IMG/VR virus record: IMGVR_UViG_3300032156_000014
Location: 1 to 52,498 of that record
Source of the DNA: a virus
Lineage: Duplodnaviria > Caudoviricetes
Direction: 5' to 3' (one strand)
DNA: 52,498 nt
Shown here: piece after piece, positions 6,377 through 49,043 of the stretch
Layout: each line of letters starts with the position of its first letter
Position numbering within the stretch: position 1 is the stretch's first letter
Program-made: the position numbers and the translations under genes
Notes under the pieces: model-generated
The model's database searches: none
What the model was told of the DNA's origin: nothing
The model's input: the letters and a program-made list of their open reading frames with translations, nothing else

Positions 6377-7179
6377 AACGGATGGGTTTTGTTGTATATG
6401 AATTTATTGACGAAATAAACCTGTCCCCTGCCGGTTACTTTTGAAGTTCTGGAAATAAGGACCTTACCGCCCGGCTGGTTTATGGTTGTCTCTTTGATCT
6501 CAAATAGCCCGAGCTCCATTGCTTTTTGTGTCGGCATGTTGTAATAATCACCCCTGACTCCCAGATAGCCCTTTTGACGGAGCCATATATAAAGCCTGTT
6601 CTGGCCTATCTCTATGTCATTCTGATTGAGTATTTTGGCAAACTCACCTATCAGGATGCTTTTATCGCTGGTTGCCACCGCATCAGCAAAAAGCACTTTT
6701 GGGGCCTGGTCCTTTGCAGTCTCCTCTAATAGTTCAACTTTCTTTTCAAGCGATTGCGCCCGCTGCCTGGATTCTTTTAGTTCTGTGAGCACCCTGATTG
6801 CATTGTCAGGATCAGCAAGAATGCTGTCGATTGTCTGTGGCATGGCGGTGATACCATGCTTTAAGAGTTCTTTAATCCTGTCATTACACCATATAGCAAA
6901 AGCAGGAGAAAGCCATCTGGCAAATTCAAGAGCGATATCTTCATGCATCCATGTTCCGAAATCAGAGCCGCCGTTTCTAACTATCACTAAATCAGGCGGT
7001 GTGCATTTCCTCACAGCGGACATGGTTTCAATAAATTCGGAAGCTGAATTAGTTCTTAAGAAATCAACCGGTCTTTTTCCGAACGGTCTTGCCATCTCGG
7101 TTGCATTGACCATAACGCTGTCACCTTCTGTCTGGAAACATATTTCAGCGCCTTTATAGACAAAAATCTGGTTATTCAT
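6373..7179 (-). CDS. ant: Phage antirepressor (KilA-N + ANT/KilAC)
   Basis: VNATEMARPFGKRP...GTWMHEDIALEFARWLSP; APKVLFADAV...GQNRL...KVTGRGQVYF. Confidence 0.93.
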   Translation of the reverse strand: MNNQIFVYKGAEICFQTEGDSVMVNATEMARPFGKRPVDFLRTNSASEFIETMSAVRKCTPPDLVIVRNGGSDFGTWMHEDIALEFARWLSPAFAIWCNDRIKELLKHGITAMPQTIDSILADPDNAIRVLTELKESRQRAQSLEKKVELLEETAKDQAPKVLFADAVATSDKSILIGEFAKILNQNDIEIGQNRLYIWLRQKGYLGVRGDYYNMPTQKAMELGLFEIKETTINQPGGKVLISRTSKVTGRGQVYFVNKFIYNKTHPL

Positions 7180-26589: not shown

Positions 26590-27207
26590 TTATATTCCAA
26601 AAGCATTTATATTCCAAAGAGGCGTAAAAACCCATTCAGTGTAAGTGGCCTTATTCGCGTACAGGAAGTTGTAAGCCGAAGGATCCATGTTGAAAGTATC
26701 CGGTAAGTCATCAGCAAGGACAGGATGCAGAAAATAGCTTTTATACTCAGGGGGTATCTTTCCATAAAGCTCTCTCATCCGGTTCCAGACATCACATAAT
26801 TTAAACGTAGGGTTAGCTTTCTCCCAATCTTTACCCTTTGGAAGCACGGTAAGGGCTTTGCCATGTAACTCAACAAGATGACGCTCGACATATTTGTAAA
26901 AGACATAATATGCTATAAGCGAAATCTTTGCAGAGTTCTTCAGCCCTTCCCATTTAAGTGTATAGCTTTTTCCTAAGAATATATGAGTGAATTCCTTGCC
27001 GTCAACCAGGTCAATATATTTCTGGGTAACGGGTATGCCTCCCTCTCCGGTACAATCGGCAATAAGAGCCGTATAAAGCGGATACCCAAGTAATTTGACA
27101 AGCACTTCTTTCTCATACTGAGTGATTGCCTGGGATAATTGAGTATCCGTAGATGCACCAGGAATAAGGATCTCTCCTGTGAAATATGTACTGTCAATAA
27201 AGGCCAT
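26590..27207 (-). CDS. Head-tail connector / adaptor
   Basis: FIDSTYF.GE, YE..L..LLG..LY, IAYYVF; position after the capsid genes. Confidence 0.6.
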   Translation of the reverse strand: MAFIDSTYFTGEILIPGASTDTQLSQAITQYEKEVLVKLLGYPLYTALIADCTGEGGIPVTQKYIDLVDGKEFTHIFLGKSYTLKWEGLKNSAKISLIAYYVFYKYVERHLVELHGKALTVLPKGKDWEKANPTFKLCDVWNRMRELYGKIPPEYKSYFLHPVLADDLPDTFNMDPSAYNFLYANKATYTEWVFTPLWNINAFGI

Positions 27208-27212
27208 CAGCG

Positions 27213-27623
27213 TTATTTCTTAGCTTTCCGTACTGCTTTCTTCGCTGCAGGCTTTTTGCCTTTCTTAGCTTTCGACTTAATAGCACTTTTTGCCAGCTTA
27301 ACCTTTTCAAGCTCAGCCTTCTTCTCGGCTTCAAGGCGCTCCCTTTCTGCTACCCCTGCCTTCTCTTTCTCTTCTTTCTCAAGGCGTTCAGCCTCTAACC
27401 TGGCCTGTTCATCAGCATCATTCCCCTCATTTGCTCTCTGTTCATCCGTGCTTTCACCCGCAGACGCATCTCCCTGCTGTCCAGATTCGCCTGAAGTGGA
27501 TGCAGGGATTTCTCCCTGCTCCTGTTCTTCAGTATCTTCAAAGGGAGTTGCGGAACCCTTTTTTAAGAGGATCTCCGCAATCTTCCCATGAAGTCTCTTT
27601 CCTGTCTTAGAAATAACTTCCAT
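27213..27623 (-). CDS. Low-complexity protein (acidic middle, Lys/Ala-rich histone-H1-like tail)
   Basis: Composition. Confidence 0.65.
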   Translation of the reverse strand: MEVISKTGKRLHGKIAEILLKKGSATPFEDTEEQEQGEIPASTSGESGQQGDASAGESTDEQRANEGNDADEQARLEAERLEKEEKEKAGVAERERLEAEKKAELEKVKLAKSAIKSKAKKGKKPAAKKAVRKAKK

Positions 27624-27624
27624 G

Positions 27625-29358
27625 TCAGTACGTTACTAATATAGGTCCCTTATCTGCAGTAAATGTGGTGCCAGGTGTTATATCAGCCTTTGTACCCCAT
27701 GTTCCCGCAGTCGTTCCTGTAATGAACTTACTGCCAGGAATAGGATAAGCCCTGAATTTAGCAGTAGTACCATTAAACTGAAGCACTGCATAATATTTCC
27801 CGGCAACAGCCGCATAAGTAGTTGTAAATGGAACGCTTTGAAAATTTGCAGCAGTACCAACTATTGCAGCAGCTCCGCCAACAGCCCTTGATGTGGCAAC
27901 CTGAGTGCCGGCTGAATTGCATAGCTGAACAACAACCGAATCAGTTGCTCCAACAGAACCGATGAGATAAGTAATACCTGTCAGTGTTACATTATAAGGT
28001 ATATCAAGTTCCACCCACCAGCGCGCACCATTTGAACAAGCCACATCAGTACCAGAAGTAGCCAGGACAGTCGAGCCTCCTTTAGACCAGATGACTGGCG
28101 ACGGATTCGGAATGGTATAACCGCCAGTAAATGTTACATTCTTATCAAACGCATACCCGGCTGACTGAGTAGAAGTAATTCCCCATGTTGCCAGCGTTGG
28201 AGTAGCATTAGGTGTTAAAGTAACTGTCAATGCTTCCTGAGTGTCACCACCAGCGTCGCTATCTGCATCACCCTGAACTATAAGAGTAGGTTGCACGTCA
28301 TCTGCTGTCGCTGGTCCTACCCTAAGCGTTTTATCAAAACGATAACCATTTGATTGTGTTGATGTAATATCCCATACGGCGCTTGTAGGTGTAGCATTTG
28401 GAGTTAAAACAATAGCCAGGGCATCGTTTGTGTCACCTCCTGCATCACTATCCGCGTCGCCGCGTATTGAAAATACAGGTAATGTCTCATTTGTTGTGGC
28501 CAGGCCAATGGTTAATGACTTATCAAATCTGTATCCTGCGCTTTGTGTACTCGTTATGTCCCAAACCGCACTCGTCGGTGTTGCATTAGCCGTAAGATCA
28601 ATTGTAAGGGCCTCATCGGTATCACCCCCCGCATCGCTGTCAGCATCTGCAATAATAGCCAGTGCCGGAGTTGTTTCATTTGCCGAAGTCGCTCCAATAT
28701 TGACATTTGATGCTGTTATTGCAACTGTCCCGCTTGAAGTGATTGTAGTTGAACTGCCAACATCACCCAGGGTCAGGGCCCCGGTTCCTCCGGCACCGAT
28801 AGTCAGGGCAGCATCTGTATTATTATCTTTAGATGTTAAAGTGACAGTGCCTGAAGTTGCCCTGGAGAATGTTACCGTTCCTGAATTTGCTGCGATATCA
28901 TAACAATAAGAAGTCCTTACATCAAACGAGGCTATCTTAGTTTTCTGAGTGGCCCCGCTTGCAACATATTCCAGTTTAAGCCAGTTATAATTGGCCGGCG
29001 TGGTTGATGATATTGTAACGGGATTATTAGCCGAGCTGGTCCATACCACTGAATCGCTTATCTGAACCCATGAACTTGCCGAAGTCACCCGTCCATAGGC
29101 CTTTATCTTAACGCTCGGAGTCCCCGATACAGCTGTCAGCGTTGTAGTAAACGTCTGATGCTGGTAGTATTTCTGGATATTCGTAATGGTAATTGTCGAC
29201 GTGTCACTGGTTACGGTCGTGTCATTAGCTGTAAAAGCCATTGGCGCCGTCAGCATATTACCACCTGTACGAATTATCCCTGTCCGTGCTGTCTGTGCAA
29301 TGCTGACCGCTGTTAAAGCGATCAGCATTAATACAATAGTGAATAACTTTTTCATCAT
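27625..29358 (-). CDS. Secreted-type structural/decoration protein with three 63-aa repeats
   Basis: Signal peptide MMKKLF...SIA|Q; three DADSDAGGDT..ALT..LT.NATPT..W.ITSTQS.GY.FDK repeats; directly after the capsid gene. Confidence 0.7.
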   Translation of the reverse strand: MMKKLFTIVLMLIALTAVSIAQTARTGIIRTGGNMLTAPMAFTANDTTVTSDTSTITITNIQKYYQHQTFTTTLTAVSGTPSVKIKAYGRVTSASSWVQISDSVVWTSSANNPVTISSTTPANYNWLKLEYVASGATQKTKIASFDVRTSYCYDIAANSGTVTFSRATSGTVTLTSKDNNTDAALTIGAGGTGALTLGDVGSSTTITSSGTVAITASNVNIGATSANETTPALAIIADADSDAGGDTDEALTIDLTANATPTSAVWDITSTQSAGYRFDKSLTIGLATTNETLPVFSIRGDADSDAGGDTNDALAIVLTPNATPTSAVWDITSTQSNGYRFDKTLRVGPATADDVQPTLIVQGDADSDAGGDTQEALTVTLTPNATPTLATWGITSTQSAGYAFDKNVTFTGGYTIPNPSPVIWSKGGSTVLATSGTDVACSNGARWWVELDIPYNVTLTGITYLIGSVGATDSVVVQLCNSAGTQVATSRAVGGAAAIVGTAANFQSVPFTTTYAAVAGKYYAVLQFNGTTAKFRAYPIPGSKFITGTTAGTWGTKADITPGTTFTADKGPILVTY

Positions 29359-29420: not shown

Positions 29421-30761
29421 TTATGTAGTTATTGCAGCCACGGCAGCATCAAGGTCAGAGCAGTATATAACTGCAGCTTTGTCTCTCACACCAAAAGCAA
29501 GACGGACCTTGATAACAACAGTTTTTTGTCCTTCAGTAAAGTCAGTGCCGTTGTATCCTACCTCAAGGGTCATATCCTTGCGTTTCCCGATCATCAGCTG
29601 CTTGCTGTCAAGCACGACTGCTATGTTTGCTGCCATGACAGTTGAGGTCGTTTTGATGATCCTCATGCCACAAACATAAGTCGGCTCTCCCAGAACGTCA
29701 AAAACAACCCTGCGGTCAATCTTACTGTTATCCAGTTGATCTTTTTCAGAAGCCAGTTCATTAATCTCCTGTGCAGCAAGAAGAACCACATCGGGGCGAT
29801 AGTTACTTGCCTCTGCCTGTAGCTTCATTGTGGCAATACAATCTACCTTGTTTGCGTTTGCTATTGTTGATGCATAGGTCGTAGCACTTGCAAAGTTGGT
29901 CTTTTTGTTACTGGTGAGCAATCCTGCGAGTGCAGAAGAGTCATCACCTGCCGTTCCGAGCATCTGATAATCAACATTGTCGAGAATCTTGCTCGGGCCC
30001 GTGACTGCGATTTCTTCCATTGCTTCTTCCAGGTCGTCAAGAGTCTCGTCCGATAACGTGAAATATGTTGCAATGAAGAAAGCCTTGAATTCAACAGTCT
30101 TAAGCAGGAAGCTTGACTTACTAGAAGCCGAACCTTCAGTCTTAGTGCCTGCCCCCTCCTCATAGGTGTAAACAACCAATAGGCTCATATAGGGTCTGCC
30201 GATGGTTTTTGAAGGCATCCAGTCAGTAACATGCGGGTATATGGTCAGCGGGATCCCTACCCTCTGGGGATCGAGTTCGGTGAGCCGTATTGTTGCGACG
30301 TTGCTCTGGACAATGTTGCTTTCAAGCATATCGACAGCTACCTTAACAGTCATTTCCGGGCTGACTTTATTGCCTTTCTTTGAGAAGTATTCTTTCAGCG
30401 ACTTACGCTGTCCGAAATCATCATTCTTATCAGTGAGCAGTCCCGGGGCATCTTTCGAAGCTTCCATGACAGCATTGATAAGGGCCTGCTTGAACATTTC
30501 CTTGAAATTCTTGGGTTTTTCAACCTCTTTATTCCCCTGTTCTTTCAGGGCATTGATAGCTGCAGCATTGGCAGCAGCTTCGGTAACGAGCTTGTCAACA
30601 CTCTCCTTGAGAGCCTTGATATCTTCGTTAGTGAGTTTGTCTGCGATGGCTTTGTTTATTCCATCGACGCGAGTTTCAAGGTCCGTTTTCTTCACATTAT
30701 CTTTCTGTGAATCAGCGATAAGTCCCTTTATCTCTTGTAGCAAAAGTTCTTTTTCGTTCAT
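29421..30761 (-). CDS. Major capsid protein (HK97 fold with N-terminal delta domain)
   Basis: Coiled-coil N-terminus; EG..K, S.E.L.D, G.G....GL, F......IK.R....V....A motifs. Confidence 0.92.
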   Translation of the reverse strand: MNEKELLLQEIKGLIADSQKDNVKKTDLETRVDGINKAIADKLTNEDIKALKESVDKLVTEAAANAAAINALKEQGNKEVEKPKNFKEMFKQALINAVMEASKDAPGLLTDKNDDFGQRKSLKEYFSKKGNKVSPEMTVKVAVDMLESNIVQSNVATIRLTELDPQRVGIPLTIYPHVTDWMPSKTIGRPYMSLLVVYTYEEGAGTKTEGSASSKSSFLLKTVEFKAFFIATYFTLSDETLDDLEEAMEEIAVTGPSKILDNVDYQMLGTAGDDSSALAGLLTSNKKTNFASATTYASTIANANKVDCIATMKLQAEASNYRPDVVLLAAQEINELASEKDQLDNSKIDRRVVFDVLGEPTYVCGMRIIKTTSTVMAANIAVVLDSKQLMIGKRKDMTLEVGYNGTDFTEGQKTVVIKVRLAFGVRDKAAVIYCSDLDAAVAAITT

Positions 30762-30767
30762 TTTGAA

Positions 30768-31733
30768 TTAATTTTTTAAGTTTGACAATAAAAATTTGTA
30801 ATCGATCTGAGTGGGCTTATCCGGTTCAGATATAATATGAGTGCCCTGCACGGGCGGGTCATCTTGTTTTTTTCGTGATACTGGCTTGTGACATTTCGGA
30901 CAGTCGACATATCCCATACCAGCTTCAGATACAGAGTTATAGTCGAATTCATGTCCGCAAGACGGGCAAACAACCATATCTTTGCTTATCCCGTTATCAA
31001 GTGTCGGAGTGGCAGTATTGCTTCCAAGCGGTACTGCAGATCCTTCAACCAGCTTCGCTTCGAGAACATACCAGAAATAACCTCTCTCGTCAGCAACTTC
31101 CGGGTTTGCTATCTGAGGATAATATTTCTTCCAGGCTTCATATTCATTCGGGTACTCTTCATCATTGATGGCAAAATCCATCTTGACATAGTACATCCCA
31201 ACGGAATGATTTCTTACCCAGCTGTTTGCATACTGGTTGAACATATACTCATTACGCTTCTTAAGAATTTCCGATTCAAAAAGAAGTGCTTCAGTGGTTC
31301 CCTGGTAAGAATAACCAAGCTCGGACCATTTGAAGTTCTTAACATAGGCTTTCAGCTGGTCGCCGTCGGCAATGATTTTTTCAAATTCCATGTCGTGCTC
31401 CTGCAGGTGCATGATCATCTTATTGTTCTGAAGGCTTCTGTTCCAGAGGCCTGGCAAATGCAGGTCATTATGATTGTCAAGGAAATTTGTCGTGTTGATC
31501 ACACAGACAACTTTAAGCGAATCCATGTTCGGCAGGTCGGCAATAGTACTTCCTTCTGCCTTCATTGCTTTTGCTTTCTCCGGGTCCAGAACAAGGGTCG
31601 GCTTAATAATAACCGGACAGTCAGCATCCTTCTTAACAGCTTTTTTCTGAGCTATTAACTTATCCCTGTTCTCAACCAGAAATTTGAACAGATCTTTTTT
31701 GGTCGCAAATTCCATGTTACCATAATGTTCCAT
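30768..31733 (-). CDS. Prohead protease with C-terminal zinc ribbon
   Basis: HLQEH, HSVG, EGSAVPLGSN.ATP; CPSC...CPKC. Confidence 0.85.
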   Translation of the reverse strand: MEHYGNMEFATKKDLFKFLVENRDKLIAQKKAVKKDADCPVIIKPTLVLDPEKAKAMKAEGSTIADLPNMDSLKVVCVINTTNFLDNHNDLHLPGLWNRSLQNNKMIMHLQEHDMEFEKIIADGDQLKAYVKNFKWSELGYSYQGTTEALLFESEILKKRNEYMFNQYANSWVRNHSVGMYYVKMDFAINDEEYPNEYEAWKKYYPQIANPEVADERGYFWYVLEAKLVEGSAVPLGSNTATPTLDNGISKDMVVCPSCGHEFDYNSVSEAGMGYVDCPKCHKPVSRKKQDDPPVQGTHIISEPDKPTQIDYKFLLSNLKN

Positions 31734-44525: not shown

Positions 44526-46202
44526 TTATCCTGCTTTATGTATTAAAACATCGGGTAATAATTGTTTGATAACAGGCTCTAAAAGAGCCTTCGCCATACC
44601 GACCGGCACAGAATTGCCGACCATTTTGATTATCGCTTTTCGTGAAAGTTTTAATCCGGGCCTGCGAAAATACCCATCCGGAAATCCCATTATCGCAGAC
44701 AGCTCCCAATCATATAAAAACCTCATCTTAATGTCAAAGTCAACAATATCACCAAGCAAAGCCGTTACAAGGGCTTTTTTGTTTTCTGCGGTAAGTATTG
44801 ACCCTAACGGCTTTTCAAGACTCTGATTCTGTGATCCCGGATTACCACCTGAATTGAAGTAAGTTGTTATGAATTGGAATTTATCCTTTGTCGTCATAGA
44901 CCCAAGTGGATTATCAATGCTTTGATTGTTTATCTCAGGGTGTCCGGAGCTGTTATATACAGAACTTATAAATTGAGCCCTTGCTGTTATAAGAGAGTCG
45001 CCTCCAAAAGTGGTTATTGTAGGAGCCGGTTTTTCAAGAGGCTGGTTTGCATAATCATTCGTCAGGGGGCGAGTATAGAATTGCATCTTCGCCGTGACTA
45101 TGGCAGAGCCATCCCGGCACGTGATTGTCGGAGCGGGCTGATCAATACCCTGACAATGATTCTGTTTCCTGCCTCCTTCTTTTGTATTACTGAAATACTT
45201 TGATATAAACTTATTCTCAATAGTTATCAGTTGCTTTGTCTGTCTTGTCAGTTGTGTCTTTAATGGTTCGTCCGGCAGGTTATAACTATCCATGTGGCAA
45301 TGGTCCTGGATATATTGCATCTTTTCAACTTTTATAAGACATTGCCGGTCTTTTGTGGTGATCGTATTTAACGGTTTGTTTATTGACTGGCAGTTGTCTC
45401 CATTGCCATAGTATGACATGATATAATACACCTCCGGGGCAAACTTCCTGATCCCTCCGGCAATTCTTTTCAGGGTGTTCTCTGAAAGCGGGTGCCGTCT
45501 CTGTTTGGCTACATTTTCATTGAGGGCCCTGCCAAATATAGAATTACCCTCGTCACTTAAGTCAATATAATCCTTACAGGGCTTCCATTTCAGGAGTCCG
45601 AACATATTCTCTTTCTCTGCATGGGTGGGCTGTGGCCATATTATCGGACATGCCTCTTTTGAGAATATCCCAAAATATCGTATTCGCCGGGTCGGACAGC
45701 CATAATCAGCTGCATTCAAAAACCGTCGTCCGTAATTAGCATAACCGAGATCCTTGATCGCCTTTACCCATCTCAGGTATTCAAGGCCCTCTTTGCCCTT
45801 GACTCTCTTGCCGTTCTTAAGCTCTCCCCAGCGGATGAACTCCGTTACATTCTCGATATAGAGATAATCAGGTTGACAATGTACTAGGTAGCGCAGAAGC
45901 TCCCAGCCAAGTGTGAATGACCCCTCGTCTTTGTCCTTACCGCCCTTTGCCTTGCTGTGCTGGGTACATTCCAGCGAAGCCCAGAGAACATCAACCGGAT
46001 CAAGCTCTTTAACGTCCTGAGTCCTGATGTCTGCCTGGTAGTGTTTTGTCTCCGGGTGATTCGCTGCGTGTGTCTTGATCGCAATAGGATCGTGATTAAG
46101 GGCCCACGAGACATGCAGTCCGGGAACCATAAAAGCACCCGTCGAAGTCCCTCCTCCTCCTGCGAACAGATCTGCAAATTTTATATTATCTAAGAAGTCC
46201 AT
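44526..46202 (-). CDS. C5-cytosine DNA methyltransferase with repeated variable region
   Basis: DLFAGGGG, SLEC, IENV, AADYG.P..R.R, MRFL...EL...MGFP, GNSVP. Confidence 0.93.
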   Translation of the reverse strand: MDFLDNIKFADLFAGGGGTSTGAFMVPGLHVSWALNHDPIAIKTHAANHPETKHYQADIRTQDVKELDPVDVLWASLECTQHSKAKGGKDKDEGSFTLGWELLRYLVHCQPDYLYIENVTEFIRWGELKNGKRVKGKEGLEYLRWVKAIKDLGYANYGRRFLNAADYGCPTRRIRYFGIFSKEACPIIWPQPTHAEKENMFGLLKWKPCKDYIDLSDEGNSIFGRALNENVAKQRRHPLSENTLKRIAGGIRKFAPEVYYIMSYYGNGDNCQSINKPLNTITTKDRQCLIKVEKMQYIQDHCHMDSYNLPDEPLKTQLTRQTKQLITIENKFISKYFSNTKEGGRKQNHCQGIDQPAPTITCRDGSAIVTAKMQFYTRPLTNDYANQPLEKPAPTITTFGGDSLITARAQFISSVYNSSGHPEINNQSIDNPLGSMTTKDKFQFITTYFNSGGNPGSQNQSLEKPLGSILTAENKKALVTALLGDIVDFDIKMRFLYDWELSAIMGFPDGYFRRPGLKLSRKAIIKMVGNSVPVGMAKALLEPVIKQLLPDVLIHKAG

Positions 46203-46252
46203 ATATTTTATCTTAATAGTCTTTCAAGGTTGGTTTTTTGTTTTACCACCGT

Positions 46253-47767
46253 TTAAACAAACATTCCAAGTTCTTTACGGATTCGTCTTTCTGTAATTTT
46301 TATATATTCCGGATTCAATTCAAATCCTATATAATTTCTTTCTAATTTTCTGGCAACAATGGCAGTGGTTCCGGCCCCCATAAAAGTATCCAAAACAATA
46401 CCGCCTTCAGGACATCCTGCTTTAATCATATCAACTATTAACTTCTCAGGGAACGTGGCAAAATGAGCTTCTGAATAAGGCATAGTATTTACTGTCCATA
46501 CGCTTCGTTTGTTTCTTATAGGATAATTTTCATCAGTTTTCCCCTCTGTCCTTTTAATATGCATTGTATTTGGTTGCTGTCCATCCGATTGAAGATTTTT
46601 ATATTTCCATCTTTCATGACCCCTTGATAGCATTGTCTGTTGGTTAAATCCCTTATACTTTACACCTCCCTTAAACATTGTATCTTTTCTCCCATCATAT
46701 CCTGTTGCTATTTCCTGTATTGCTTCCGCATCAAAATAATATTTACCGGATTTACTCAATAAGAAAATATACTCATGCGCCTTAGTACATCTATCGGTAA
46801 CACTTTCCGGCATGGGATTAGGTTTGTGCCAGATAATATCCTGTCTTAGATACCATCCGTCAGCACGTAAAGCAAAGGCAACCATCCAGGGTATTCCGAT
46901 TAAGTCTTTGGGCTTTAACATGGCACGATTATTGATGGTACATTGTGGTTGAATATCTAACTTAAAGTATGACAAGATTTCGTTATAATACTCAGAAACC
47001 ATATCAATGTATTGATTGTGGTAATCCTGTTGAACGAAGGGTAATGCGATGTCCTGATTGTGCCAATATTGCATTAACTCATCGAAAGACTTATGAAAGG
47101 ACTGAGGAACATTGTAAGTTAATGAGCGACCGCACAAAAAACAAGAAGAAGAATTACCCCTCTGCAAGCACAAGGCCAGAAGTTGCTGATAAAATTCGGA
47201 AGGCATGGACTTGTAAAATGAAAGAAGATGCTCGGTTGAGAGGTATTGAGAATGCAAAAAATCCGAAATGGAGATTAGAATGTGGTTCACCTGATGAGAA
47301 AAATCCAATGTGGGAAAACGGTCGATCAAAAATTCCATATTCTCGTGGTTGGGCGAGAAAAGTGAAGCAATTAGCATGGGAGAAAGCTGGTCATGTGTGT
47401 GAGATTTGTGGCGGGAAGCCTGTTGACACACACCACAAAGATTTTCAAAAGAATAATCATGATTTAGATAATTTACAGGTTCTTTGTCGGAAGTGCCACA
47501 AGGCTTTGCACGTTGTACATTTAAAGATGGCATAGCAGATTCTTCCCTTTTTTTATTTCCAACAAAACCAGACCATTTACTTCCTTCGGGATTACCACCT
47601 TTCCCGCTACCAAAATAAGAATCTCCGAGATTTAAAAACAGCGTCCCGTCTTTTTTCAGGATGCGTTTAACTTCAGAAAATACTTTAACAAGTTTTGAAA
47701 CGTATAACTCCGGCGTTTCTTCTAATCCTATTTGTCCGGCACAACCATAGTCTCTGAGGCCGTTCAG
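46253..47767 (-). CDS. Beta-class N4C/N6A DNA methyltransferase, C-terminal part, with an in-frame insertion of about 200 codons
   Basis: GLRDYG..GQIGLE, LNLGDSY, KPKDLIGIPW, DIIWHKPNPMPES, HFATFP, VLDTFMGAGTT, GFELNPEY. Confidence 0.9.
   Translation of the reverse strand: MNGLRDYGCAGQIGLEETPELYVSKLVKVFSEVKRILKKDGTLFLNLGDSYFGSGKGGNPEGSKWSGFVGNKKREESAMPSLNVQRAKPCGTSDKEPVNYLNHDYSFENLCGVCQQASRHKSHTHDQLSPMLIASLFSPNHENMEFLIDRFPTLDFSHQVNHILISISDFLHSQYLSTEHLLSFYKSMPSEFYQQLLALCLQRGNSSSCFLCGRSLTYNVPQSFHKSFDELMQYWHNQDIALPFVQQDYHNQYIDMVSEYYNEILSYFKLDIQPQCTINNRAMLKPKDLIGIPWMVAFALRADGWYLRQDIIWHKPNPMPESVTDRCTKAHEYIFLLSKSGKYYFDAEAIQEIATGYDGRKDTMFKGGVKYKGFNQQTMLSRGHERWKYKNLQSDGQQPNTMHIKRTEGKTDENYPIRNKRSVWTVNTMPYSEAHFATFPEKLIVDMIKAGCPEGGIVLDTFMGAGTTAIVARKLERNYIGFELNPEYIKITERRIRKELGMFV
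46969..47535 (+). CDS. HNH homing endonuclease nested antisense inside the methyltransferase
   Basis: CIDC..CPDC, NPMWENG, CEICG..THHKD..KNNHDLDNLQVLCRKCH. Confidence 0.9.
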   Translation: MTRFRYNTQKPYQCIDCGNPVERRVMRCPDCANIALTHRKTYERTEEHCKLMSDRTKNKKKNYPSASTRPEVADKIRKAWTCKMKEDARLRGIENAKNPKWRLECGSPDEKNPMWENGRSKIPYSRGWARKVKQLAWEKAGHVCEICGGKPVDTHHKDFQKNNHDLDNLQVLCRKCHKALHVVHLKMA

Positions 47768-47895
47768 TAATACGGAGGTGACGTCACGACACAATCAATT
47801 ATGTCGGACGGCATCTGCCTTAATAAACTTAAGGCATCGCCACAATGAATTTTATTAATCCATCGTGCCATCTCCGTATTTAAAATGTTTTGCAT
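47764..47895 (-). CDS. Second methyltransferase N-terminus, 43 aa, ending SPPYY-stop
   Basis: MQNILNTEMARWINKIHCGDALSLLRQMPSDIIDCVVTSPPYY*; not in the ORF track. Confidence 0.85.
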   Translation of the reverse strand: MQNILNTEMARWINKIHCGDALSLLRQMPSDIIDCVVTSPPYY

Positions 47896-47919
47896 AATTA
47901 AATTAAGTTTGTATATTTA
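47889..47919 (+). promoter_or_regulatory. Putative promoter for the antisense LAGLIDADG gene
   Basis: TTTG (47889), 19-nt spacer, TATATTTA (47912), one mismatch to TAnnTTTG. Confidence 0.55.
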
Positions 47920-48553
47920 CCCCCGTAATTAAGGATATATTATTATGAAAAAAGAACTCATTGCTTATCTTGCTGGAATTATGGATGCTGATGGTTACTT
48001 TACTATCAAAAGGCAAACCTATGGTGTCAGGATTATTAAAGACGCCAAAAATCCTACTTATTATGAAAGAGTGGGCATTAAGCAAATATCTCCAATCGCA
48101 ATTGATATTATTAAAACTAATTTTGGTGGATATAGAAATATCCAAAAACCCAATACAAAAAATGGCAAACCACTCTTTGGAGTTGAACTTAGGAATAAGA
48201 TAGCGCATGAGTTTGTTAAGACCATTGCTCCATATATTCAAATTAAAAAAAGACAAGTTGAAATACTCTTGGATCTTAGAAAAGAACTTAATAAACCCAG
48301 AGAAATGAAACATATCGTCAAGCAGAAAAATCCTCATGGTTATATAAGCGATTTTATTAAATATTCTTTGAGTGATAGTCAGATAGATAAAAGAGAGAGT
48401 ATGTTGGCAGAAATTAAATCGCTCAATGATTCCAGAAACGATCTGTTTCATCAACCCAAGCCGTGGTGAAGTAACGCAACAATTAACTGACTCATCAGGT
48501 AGCCTGGTTAATCCCATTAAACAATCTTCATTATATATTACATTCAATTCCAT
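47903..48553 (-). pseudogene. First methyltransferase N-terminus (MELNVIYNEDCL...CCVTSP) fused to a stop-free antisense read-through of the LAGLIDADG gene
   Basis: First 30 codons are MTase-like; the rest is codon-aligned antisense of 47945-48469. Confidence 0.85.
47945..48469 (+). CDS. Single-motif LAGLIDADG homing endonuclease
   Basis: IAYLAGIMDADGYF, FGG, I.PY...KK.Q. Confidence 0.92.
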   Translation: MKKELIAYLAGIMDADGYFTIKRQTYGVRIIKDAKNPTYYERVGIKQISPIAIDIIKTNFGGYRNIQKPNTKNGKPLFGVELRNKIAHEFVKTIAPYIQIKKRQVEILLDLRKELNKPREMKHIVKQKNPHGYISDFIKYSLSDSQIDKRESMLAEIKSLNDSRNDLFHQPKPW

Positions 48554-49043
48554 TATTTCTTCTTCAGTCCTTTCACAAACCCCTCCAGCTCCGGGTTTGC
48601 CTTCATGTATTCTTTGGCAGCTGCCCTTATTGCTTCATCAAACATTTTATCTTCAGTAAACTTCTTTCTCCATTTTATCCTCATCTGGATTGCATCAACC
48701 GGCTGACCACAGGCCATGACTTTGATATCAGCCCTGAGCCGGCGGTTCTCTGCCTGTAATTTGGCATAGACGGAGCGGGAGACATGGGTTCCTGGTTTCA
48801 TTTCTGATCGTCGGATTGTTTGTCTGGTTCCTTTCCGGTTATCTTCTCAATCCGTACATTATTCAGATCCCTGACCACTCCTATCATCTTAATATTGATG
48901 GTGTCAAGATTCTTATTGTCTTTCATCTCGCTGTTTATTCGCTCGAGTAGGTCAACAGCATCTTCATACATTGTGCTTTCCTTTTTATCCATGTTATTTG
49001 AGATTAGCCAGACAGAAAATAAAGATTGAAATTCCAATGGCAA
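48553..49043 (-). other. Two small hypothetical genes (48553-48801, 48798-49043)
   Basis: Overlapping co-oriented ORFs. Confidence 0.55.

Follow-up and report, generated by a model that had tools for sequence, protein, structure and literature searches.

How does a homing endonuclease gene come to lie inside a conserved coding sequence without destroying it, when neither an intron nor an intein is there to carry it? Splicing lets such genes invade coding sequence without disruption of the product, as stated in the available part of one source (PMC3943268), and the strategies named in the accessible portion of another are introns, inteins, and split genes with added tails (10.1101/2022.08.31.505936). 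The question is raised by a viral record of 52,498 bases (IMGVR_UViG_3300032156_000014, Caudoviricetes), the whole of which is referred to here as the window and which is 86% complete (CheckV). In the window, an HNH endonuclease gene on the plus strand is nested entirely in a minus-strand gene for a beta-class N4/N6 DNA methyltransferase, and the frame of the methyltransferase continues across the antisense of the endonuclease gene without a stop codon. The reading favored here, which is judged probable, is that of a mobile HNH gene that occupies a methyltransferase linker in antisense and is transparent to the reading frame of its host, without intron or intein.

An HNH gene nested in antisense within a methyltransferase gene

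The methyltransferase open reading frame (ORF) occupies 46253..47794 on the minus strand and encodes 513 amino acids (aa), matching the Pfam family N6_N4_Mtase (PF01555) with an E-value of 4.4e-46; it is recorded as a single protein, P0025. The HNH gene (46969..47535, plus strand), a 188-aa ORF with a match to Pfam HNH, lies wholly within it, as an earlier, sequence-only reading of this DNA had described. That reading also placed about 200 stop-free antisense codons between GDSY...REES and LKPKDLIGIPW, and 206 are counted. This insert (46919..47536, minus strand), bounded by ...NKKREES and LKPKDLIGIPW..., spans 618 nucleotides (nt) and consists of the antisense of the HNH gene together with 50 nt 5′ of its ATG and 1 nt past its stop. 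It holds no stop in the methyltransferase register and 9 stops in each of the other two antisense registers.

The two parts of the methyltransferase that flank the insert are readily recognized. The C part, from LKPKDLIGIPW... to the stop (46253..46918, minus strand), matches PF01555 with its motifs intact; the N part past motif IV (GLRDYG...GDSY...REES) covers 47537..47761 on the same strand. In the S-adenosylmethionine (AdoMet) motif (FxGxG), residues D469, F471, G473 and T476 are invariant, and the sequence relatives with solved structures include the beta-class N4/N6 enzymes CcrM, M.MboIIA and M.PvuII. The statement in the sequence-only reading that all downstream methyltransferase motifs are intact holds for the C part; what it missed is that the 513-aa ORF is without an N-terminus and a motif IV of its own. 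Motif IV (..VVTSPPYY) is encoded from an ATG at 47895 in another frame.

The insert falls in the linker between GDSYxGSG and LKPKDLIGIPW, which is variable in length and sequence among insert-less relatives; across 79 viral relatives, the linker length beyond the matched parts ranges from 0 to 153 nt. In an AlphaFold2 (AF2) model of the 513-aa ORF based on 29 aligned sequences, blocks of the methyltransferase core have mean predicted local distance difference test (pLDDT) values of 85-93, and residues 65-291 lie below 50 and are mostly coil. Both observations agree with the earlier suggestion that the insert is accommodated as a loop in a variable region.

The HNH protein of the window matches Pfam HNH (PF01844) with an E-value of 2.4e-4 (21.6 bits against a cut-off of 21.4), and Pfam HNH is matched in 16 of 17 members of its family. 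Invariant across 17 relatives are C144, C147, H155, H156, N168, C173, C176, H177 and H181, comprising the HH, the N and two CxxC pairs. The AF2 model has a mean pLDDT of 76, with 86-94 across the HNH part, and its top Foldseek matches are HNH domains (Cas5-HNH, McrA and the phage GVE2 HNH) at weak E-values of 8e-3 to 4e-2; the GVE2 domain aligns over 71 columns with a template modeling (TM) score of 0.60 on the target and a root-mean-square deviation of 1.9. A large protein collection contains 24 relatives at E ≤1e-3, which are 53-82% identical. NUMOD3 motifs, which are typical of homing endonucleases, are found in 3 of the 17 HNH relatives.

The antisense frame is open beyond chance

In the register of the insert, each antisense codon lies over positions 2 and 3 of one sense codon and position 1 of the next, and stops arise from xTT-A, xCT-A and xTC-A junctions in the HNH gene. 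The sequence-only reading had named this stop-prone register correctly and had seen no stop in it. Across the window's 33 other genes, it is the most stop-rich antisense register, with 811 stops in 11,695 codons and no open run longer than 110 codons, and from that background stop density the probability that 206 codons are open is about 4e-7. Under synonymous permutation of the HNH codons, stops average 6.06 and the fraction of shuffles free of them is 0.0001; the corresponding values are 6.25 and 0.00025 for synonymous resampling by the codon usage of the window, and 10.0 and 0 for permutation of codon order (20,000 shuffles each). The synonymous shuffles, which had been put forward as a check when the sequence was first read, are thus stop-free in 1-2.5 per 10,000. 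The openness of the insert is not a matter of chance.

Long antisense ORFs also occur elsewhere in the window. Five of them, of 150-256 aa, lie on the plus strand in ordinary minus-strand genes (6626-7159, 27139-27591, 28430-28903, 30202-30771 and 30888-31658). No Pfam family was found in these five; they run in the two less stop-rich registers and are taken as chance shadows.

Conservation of the arrangement in related loci

Related loci were fetched by alignment-based searches (43 viral loci, the best 80 of 147 metagenomic loci and 15 genome loci), a single-sequence locus search of viral contigs having returned no relative. The loci were compared by local tblastn with the HNH protein and the methyltransferase parts flanking the insert. 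A long HNH match with both flanks was obtained in 82 loci; removal of 1 locus without usable flanks and of 20 duplicate inserts reduced these to 61 distinct loci, among them the window. All but one of them (60 of 61) have an antisense HNH gene at a common site, flanks that agree in frame, and an insert whose length is divisible by three and which has no stop in that frame. These inserts measure 477-675 nt and carry 1-17 stops in the other two registers, and their HNH proteins are 40-82% identical. The relative register is identical in all embedded loci, and a further 15 of 15 loci cut by contig ends are also open in the methyltransferase register.

As in the window, this openness exceeds what the HNH proteins would dictate. 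Synonymous permutation within each locus (2,000 shuffles for each of 48 loci) predicts 1.7-9.7 stops, and the stop-free fraction is below 0.02 in 43 of the 48. Natural controls are provided by two non-embedded HNH homologues, L126 and L082, which carry 5 and 2 stops in that register; in L126 the HNH gene is free-standing, upstream of a methyltransferase and on the same strand. A comparison of homologues had likewise been proposed from the sequence alone, and it sets divergent inserts that are open and in frame apart from non-embedded copies with stops. In 29 of 46 complete loci, a single ORF extends from an N-terminus with the SPPY/F motif through the antisense of the HNH gene to the C-terminal end.

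Which frame is under selection

Codon positions were compared in 59 loci, with L097 excluded on account of a stop in its HNH frame. Nucleotide diversity at HNH codon positions 1, 2 and 3 is 0.309, 0.304 and 0.570. At the amino-acid level, the HNH frame has a diversity of 0.41 and the methyltransferase register one of 0.68, the latter being the least conserved of the three antisense registers. These values indicate that the HNH frame is under purifying selection and that the antisense peptide varies freely, merely kept open. Both halves of the methyltransferase are under selection as well: the flanks retain a coding signature of 0.34/0.28/0.61 on the C side (0.37/0.32/0.63 for the C part in HNH-bearing alleles) and of 0.30/0.19/0.60 on the N side.

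The segment had been called fully dual-coding in the sequence-only reading. This description stands in that both frames are open and, judged by the shuffles, the related loci and the non-embedded controls, are held open by selection, yet one frame alone, that of the HNH gene, is conserved as protein; the methyltransferase frame is not. The excluded locus, L097, adds a case of its own: it has an internal stop in the HNH frame and a methyltransferase frame that is still open through the insert, and it looks like a decaying element in a host ORF that is still needed.

Distribution and apparent mobility

The HNH gene has a patchy distribution among methyltransferases. The proteins nearest to the C part of the window (80, 78 and 75% identical) are insert-less and 337-345 aa long, and the insert is absent from all 79 of the closest viral relatives. 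In a phylogeny of 122 C parts, of which 42 carry the insert and 80 are empty, presence of the insert needs 21 changes versus about 35 for shuffled labels; at least 3 presence changes are forced by well-supported branches, and the nearest tree rows of the window are all empty. HNH and methyltransferase identities are weakly correlated (Spearman 0.25 over 1,176 pairs).

A pair of loci gives a closer view of how such a distribution could arise. L048 and L049 encode HNH proteins that are 99% identical and methyltransferase C parts that are 62% identical in protein. At the DNA level they are 100% identical over about 750 nt, a stretch made up of the HNH gene with about 15 nt of the C part and 70-100 nt of the N part, and beyond this cassette identity drops to about 70% and lower. 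The pattern, seen in one clear pair, is as would be expected for homing with co-conversion. Taken with the tree, it makes the HNH element look mobile, patchy and horizontally transferred. A 284-nt contig from X1 that joins 46909 to 47604, skipping 694 nt, was not used, its shorter side being 29 letters long with less than 95% likeness; it is probably an insert-less methyltransferase of another organism.

Proposed mechanism and points that weigh against it

The events that would account for this arrangement can be set out as follows. A mobile HNH homing endonuclease gene would have entered, in antisense, the variable linker of a phage gene for a beta-class N4/N6 DNA methyltransferase. The host gene would be spared by a "frame-transparent" element, that is, by a length that is a multiple of three and by avoidance of xTT-A, xCT-A and xTC-A junctions. 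Ribosomes on the methyltransferase mRNA would run through about 200 codons of meaningless, probably disordered peptide, which would be looped out between the GDSY strand and the LKPKDLIGIPW helix, and the HNH protein would be made off the opposite strand with its own start and stop. From the comparisons of sequence we infer that ribosomes read through the insert and yield an active methyltransferase, that alleles without the insert are cut by the HNH protein, and that homing accounts for the spread of the element.

Several findings weigh against this account. In the window itself, a 5-nt insert led by a stop codon puts motif IV and the methyltransferase body in different frames, whereas the two share a frame in 29 of 46 related loci with an HNH gene. 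A full-length active methyltransferase in the window would need recoding or is not made, which leaves its status uncertain, and the open insert could be inherited and not currently selected. The contig of a second assembler matches 46200-48600 with 0 differences and 0 gaps (the sample is maybe identical), and the interruption at motif IV is therefore not the slip of one assembler. Among the 61 distinct loci, L120 is an exception, with the most distant HNH protein (39%), flanks in different frames and stops in the insert; the loci also share descent, so that 60 of 61 do not amount to 60 independent trials. The methyltransferase tree is a FastTree reconstruction that is well supported in 17 of 116 branches. 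As for the HNH protein, its Pfam score barely exceeds the cut-off and its Foldseek E-values are weak, 8e-3 at best. Among 50,697 cultured-phage records there was no relative of it or of the LAGLIDADG-type protein encoded nearby, and so no annotated isolate for comparison. On the side of expression, no RNA sequencing runs with the stretch were listed (runs were searched as contigs). A weak sigma-70-like promoter match, TTAACA-18-TACATT with TG (46915..46944, plus strand), precedes the HNH ATG by 25 nt; when the region was scanned for promoters and terminators, nine sites were obtained versus 8.7 ± 3.2 in shuffles, which is not over background.

Alternative explanations

The alternative that survives best, although it is unlikely, is a stable nested pair in place of a selfish element. 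HNH and methyltransferase would cooperate, as in a restriction-modification-like or addiction module, nesting would ensure their joint inheritance, and the frame would be open for the sake of methylase function. Such cooperation would fit the near confinement of the HNH family to this methyltransferase family (the N part is hit in 90 of 123 loci and the C part in 87 of 123), the position of the free-standing L126 copy next to a methyltransferase, and the constancy of site and register in all embedded copies. It is harder to reconcile with the closest methyltransferases, which are without the nuclease, and with the patchy presence of the nuclease on the methyltransferase tree. Nor does it account for the identical cassette in the two diverged alleles L048/L049, with flank identity decaying away from it, or for L097, in which the HNH frame is stopped and the methyltransferase frame open. 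The same gene has moreover been invaded by LAGLIDADG genes, by a second and a third HNH family and by true inteins, and NUMOD3 motifs are present in 3 of 17 relatives.

Less probable still is a methyltransferase that is split or dead, its open frame being a by-product of HNH sequence and codon usage or serving to prevent polarity on the downstream C5-methyltransferase gene. The gene in the window is already interrupted at motif IV, and the window holds the five other antisense ORFs of 150-256 aa without a Pfam family, both of which could be read in this sense. However, shuffles that keep protein and codon usage are stop-free in at most 2.5 per 10,000, non-embedded homologues carry stops, and the long antisense shadows of the window run in the other two registers, with a maximum of 110 codons in the HNH register. 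Both halves of the methyltransferase keep coding signatures in one frame, and the whole enzyme, including motif IV, is one ORF in 29 of 46 complete loci.

Least probable of all is removal of the insert by an unrecognized self-splicing RNA or protein element overlapping the HNH gene, with openness incidental or holding ribosomes until splicing: although introns and inteins are the textbook route for such genes in coding sequence, going by the available part of PMC3943268, and true inteins (PF14890) occur in the same methyltransferase family, Rfam gave no match in the whole window at the gathering score and three chance-level, non-intron matches in 46000-48800 at E ≤10, Pfam matched the 513-aa ORF to PF01555 alone and detected neither a Hint nor an intein domain, the insert is followed by Leu and not by Cys, Ser or Thr (the sequence-only reading had likewise seen no intein termini or group I core), the HNH ORF leaves just 50 + 1 nt of the insert uncovered, the antisense peptide lacks the conservation expected of a splicing domain, and the retention of openness and of a length divisible by three in 60 of 61 loci argues against an intron, which would need neither.

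Other endonuclease genes in the methyltransferase family

The frame-transparent HNH gene is one of two endonuclease genes at this locus. All 33 long genes taken as real in the window, including those for a capsid protein and an antirepressor, are on the minus strand; the plus-strand ORFs with recognizable content are just the two endonuclease genes, both of them in or against the one methyltransferase gene. The second, embedded or adjacent, is a LAGLIDADG-type gene at 47945..48469 (plus strand; 174 aa; PHROG 5046, E 6e-11). Its motif residues G11, D14, D16 and G17 are invariant in 13 relatives; the Pfam LAGLIDADG profile does not match the window protein and matches 3 of the 13 weakly.

The methyltransferase has two N-termini here. 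N-terminus "A" (30 codons, 48464..48553, ending ..CCVTSP) and the open antisense of the LAGLIDADG gene form one minus-strand ORF (47903..48553). N-terminus "B" (43 codons, 47767..47895, minus strand) starts at the ATG at 47895 and ends ..VVTSPPYY, in a frame separate from that of the body. Along the minus strand the order is N-terminus "A", the open LAGLIDADG antisense, a TAA at 47905-47903, a 7-nt spacer, "B", a micro-insert, and the body with its HNH insert. The same layout of "A", antisense LAGLIDADG and "B" recurs in L159, L161, L141/142 and L209. The frame of "A" continues unbroken through the LAGLIDADG antisense and stops 7 nt short of the ATG of "B", an arrangement that suggests translational coupling; the LAGLIDADG cassette apparently brings with it a substitute 5′ end for the interrupted gene. 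Contigs from two other studies, X2 (salt marsh) and X3 (wetland), match 151- and 136-nt parts of window 47804-47958 with 0 differences; this stretch covers the LAGLIDADG start and N-terminus "B", and the remaining gene is absent or diverged in those contigs.

Antisense genes that are read through are not confined to the window. A second HNH family, unrelated to the first, is found in antisense at another C-part site in L054 (1856-2413, plus strand) and L093 (2147-2725, plus strand); these two genes have no TTA, CTA or TCA codons, and their host ORFs of 823 and 850 aa span two endonuclease genes. LAGLIDADG genes are antisense and read through in L075, L148, L150, L151, L154, L155, L158 and L162. 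Host ORFs that read through genes of the second HNH family or LAGLIDADG genes are 454-850 aa long. Both kinds lie in the codon-complement register and must therefore avoid TTA, CTA and TCA codons. Synonymous permutation is uninformative in this register because it keeps codon content, and resampling and a comparison of embedded with non-embedded genes were used in its place. All three codons are absent from the window LAGLIDADG gene (p 0.0018 by resampling). These codons number 0 in 7 of the 7 embedded LAGLIDADG genes counted, versus 1-24 in 51 of 51 non-spanning relatives.

Seven further LAGLIDADG genes (L167, L180, L199, L200, L206, L208 and L212) are without TTA, CTA and TCA and have spanning antisense ORFs of 159-456 aa. 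Their GC content is mostly 0.32-0.42, with 0.60 in L206, and no Pfam family was found where this was tested (5 of 7). Pfam likewise gave no family for seven long antisense ORFs spanning other LAGLIDADG genes or for the near-spanning L213. Going by codon content and open antisense frames, the genes from L167 to L212 may represent the same embedding in unknown host genes.

The methyltransferase family has also been entered by elements of other kinds. A third HNH family is encoded on the methyltransferase strand, upstream, in L075 and L078 and also in L054, L081 and L116. In L075 and L078, the third HNH gene is an in-frame fusion to an N-terminus "A" ending SPPYYG or SPPYWGL, and a second N-terminus with a micro-insert follows. 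True inteins (PF14890) are found in P0039, P0132 and P0133. Further in-frame inserts of about 620-930 nt without a convincing plus-strand ORF occur in L077, L097, L100 (after ..NPMPESV) and L052; these may be inteins, since PF14890 inteins occur in the family.

Stop-led micro-inserts at motif IV

The interruption at motif IV in the window is a 5-nt micro-insert starting with TGA (47762..47766, minus strand), placed between ..SPPYY and GLRDYG, which breaks the frame. It has counterparts in many endonuclease-associated loci. Among the loci fetched with the LAGLIDADG protein, stop-led inserts of 3-8 nt between ..SPPY(W/Y/F) and GLRDY occur in L140, L141/142, L145/146, L148, L149, L157, L159, L161 and L162, and micro-inserts are also present in L054, L062, L067, L075, L078, L079, L081, L105, L116, L121 and L123. 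They are found at 11 of 64 distinct motif IV sites of HNH loci, and the closest ordinary relatives have normal motif IV spacing at 72 of 74 distinct sites. A stop codon leads the micro-insert in 15 distinct insert sequences. The landing codon equals the take-off codon in three distinct inserts (L141/142, L145/146 and L157); in most of the rest the two codons share two bases of three, as they do in the window (TAC, then AAC). Throughout these divergent loci, the short N-terminal segments that precede the micro-inserts are intact.

These features recall the cassette in T4 gene 60, where an insert protects against self-cleavage by MobA, according to the available part of the source (10.1101/2022.08.31.505936). 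As far as the accessible account of the T4 gene 60 bypass goes, its insert and the micro-insert at 47762-47766 are both short, non-coding and stop-led, are placed within a conserved motif that an endonuclease probably targets, and travel with an endonuclease gene. They differ in that the micro-inserts measure 3-8 nt and the T4 insert 50 nt, and the RNA structures and nascent-peptide signal of the T4 type are not evidenced here. By this analogy, it is suspected that the micro-insert shields its carrier against the neighboring endonuclease and that ribosomes get past it by hopping or shifting over a short distance at the stop codon. The micro-inserts may alternatively reflect recurrent inactivation, the methyltransferases being dead.

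Relation to known systems

The nearest parallels in phages are MobE in Aeh1 nrdA and MobA in the T4 topoisomerase gene 39/60, which are likewise HNH-type genes inserted without intron or intein in a conserved phage gene whose function is rescued by a trick that the element carries. There, to judge from the accessible portion of the source, the host protein is produced as two pieces to which tails are added, with the endonuclease gene on the same strand, whereas here the host ORF is single and the element antisense (10.1101/2022.08.31.505936). An HNH gene ahead of a tape-measure gene is a different arrangement, as far as the available part of that report extends (PMC4351075). In the full-text literature searched, whose scope excludes most subscription journals and supplements, no paper on an antisense, in-frame endonuclease gene was found.

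Homing genes of group I introns and inteins resemble the HNH gene in that they invade conserved coding sequence without loss of the product and spread horizontally in a patchy fashion. Here, in contrast, Rfam and Pfam revealed no splicing element, and the insert would be retained in the mRNA and presumably also in the protein product; inteins, moreover, are sense-strand fusions, whereas the HNH gene runs antisense and has a start and a stop of its own. Nuclear ribosomal DNA (rDNA) group I introns can hold antisense-oriented endonuclease genes. Such genes are likewise on the strand opposite to that of their host, but they belong to spliced introns of an RNA gene, which has no frame to keep. Antiparallel overprinted genes of viruses and bacteria also have both strands open, here over about 190 codons each. 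Unlike in overprinting, the overlap here comes from insertion of a ready-made gene, and one frame alone is conserved as protein.

A broader proposal adds antisense, frame-transparent embedding to introns, inteins and gene splitting as a fourth, general means of sparing the host gene, one not described to date. It would involve at least three endonuclease families at at least three sites of the methyltransferase family, possibly other host ORFs, and stop-led micro-inserts that give immunity to cleavage and are passed by short hops or shifts, motif IV being the likely target of adjacent LAGLIDADG and sense-strand HNH genes. This proposal is put forward tentatively, as possible but short of likely. 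If it is true, the micro-inserts would represent a natural analogue, over a short range, of the bypass in T4 gene 60.

Homing genes are thought to need a splicing partner or a split host gene, in so far as the available parts of the sources go (PMC3943268; 10.1101/2022.08.31.505936); here, the reverse strand of the gene is itself an open frame in phase with the host. The 60 divergent loci thereby provide a replicated natural case in which selection on the openness of a frame alone is separable from selection on a protein. The methyltransferase would be an enzyme able to carry a meaningless loop of roughly 200 residues, provided that it is indeed read through. Gene callers would systematically miss such endonuclease genes or assign the wrong size to their hosts, as with P0025. 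Two questions become testable in this setting, namely how a gene is expressed against convergent transcription and how a methyltransferase tolerates a junk insertion, and frame-transparent cassettes offer a possible design principle for insertions into essential genes.

Neighboring features of the window

No tRNA genes were found in the window. Adjoining the methyltransferase is a gene for a C5-cytosine methyltransferase of 558 aa (44526-46202, minus strand), in which PF00145 covers residues 7-544. In this protein, a segment of the ..P(L/A)xTITTKD.. type recurs about five times, a feature that we take to resemble the multi-specific phage methyltransferases with several target-recognizing domains.

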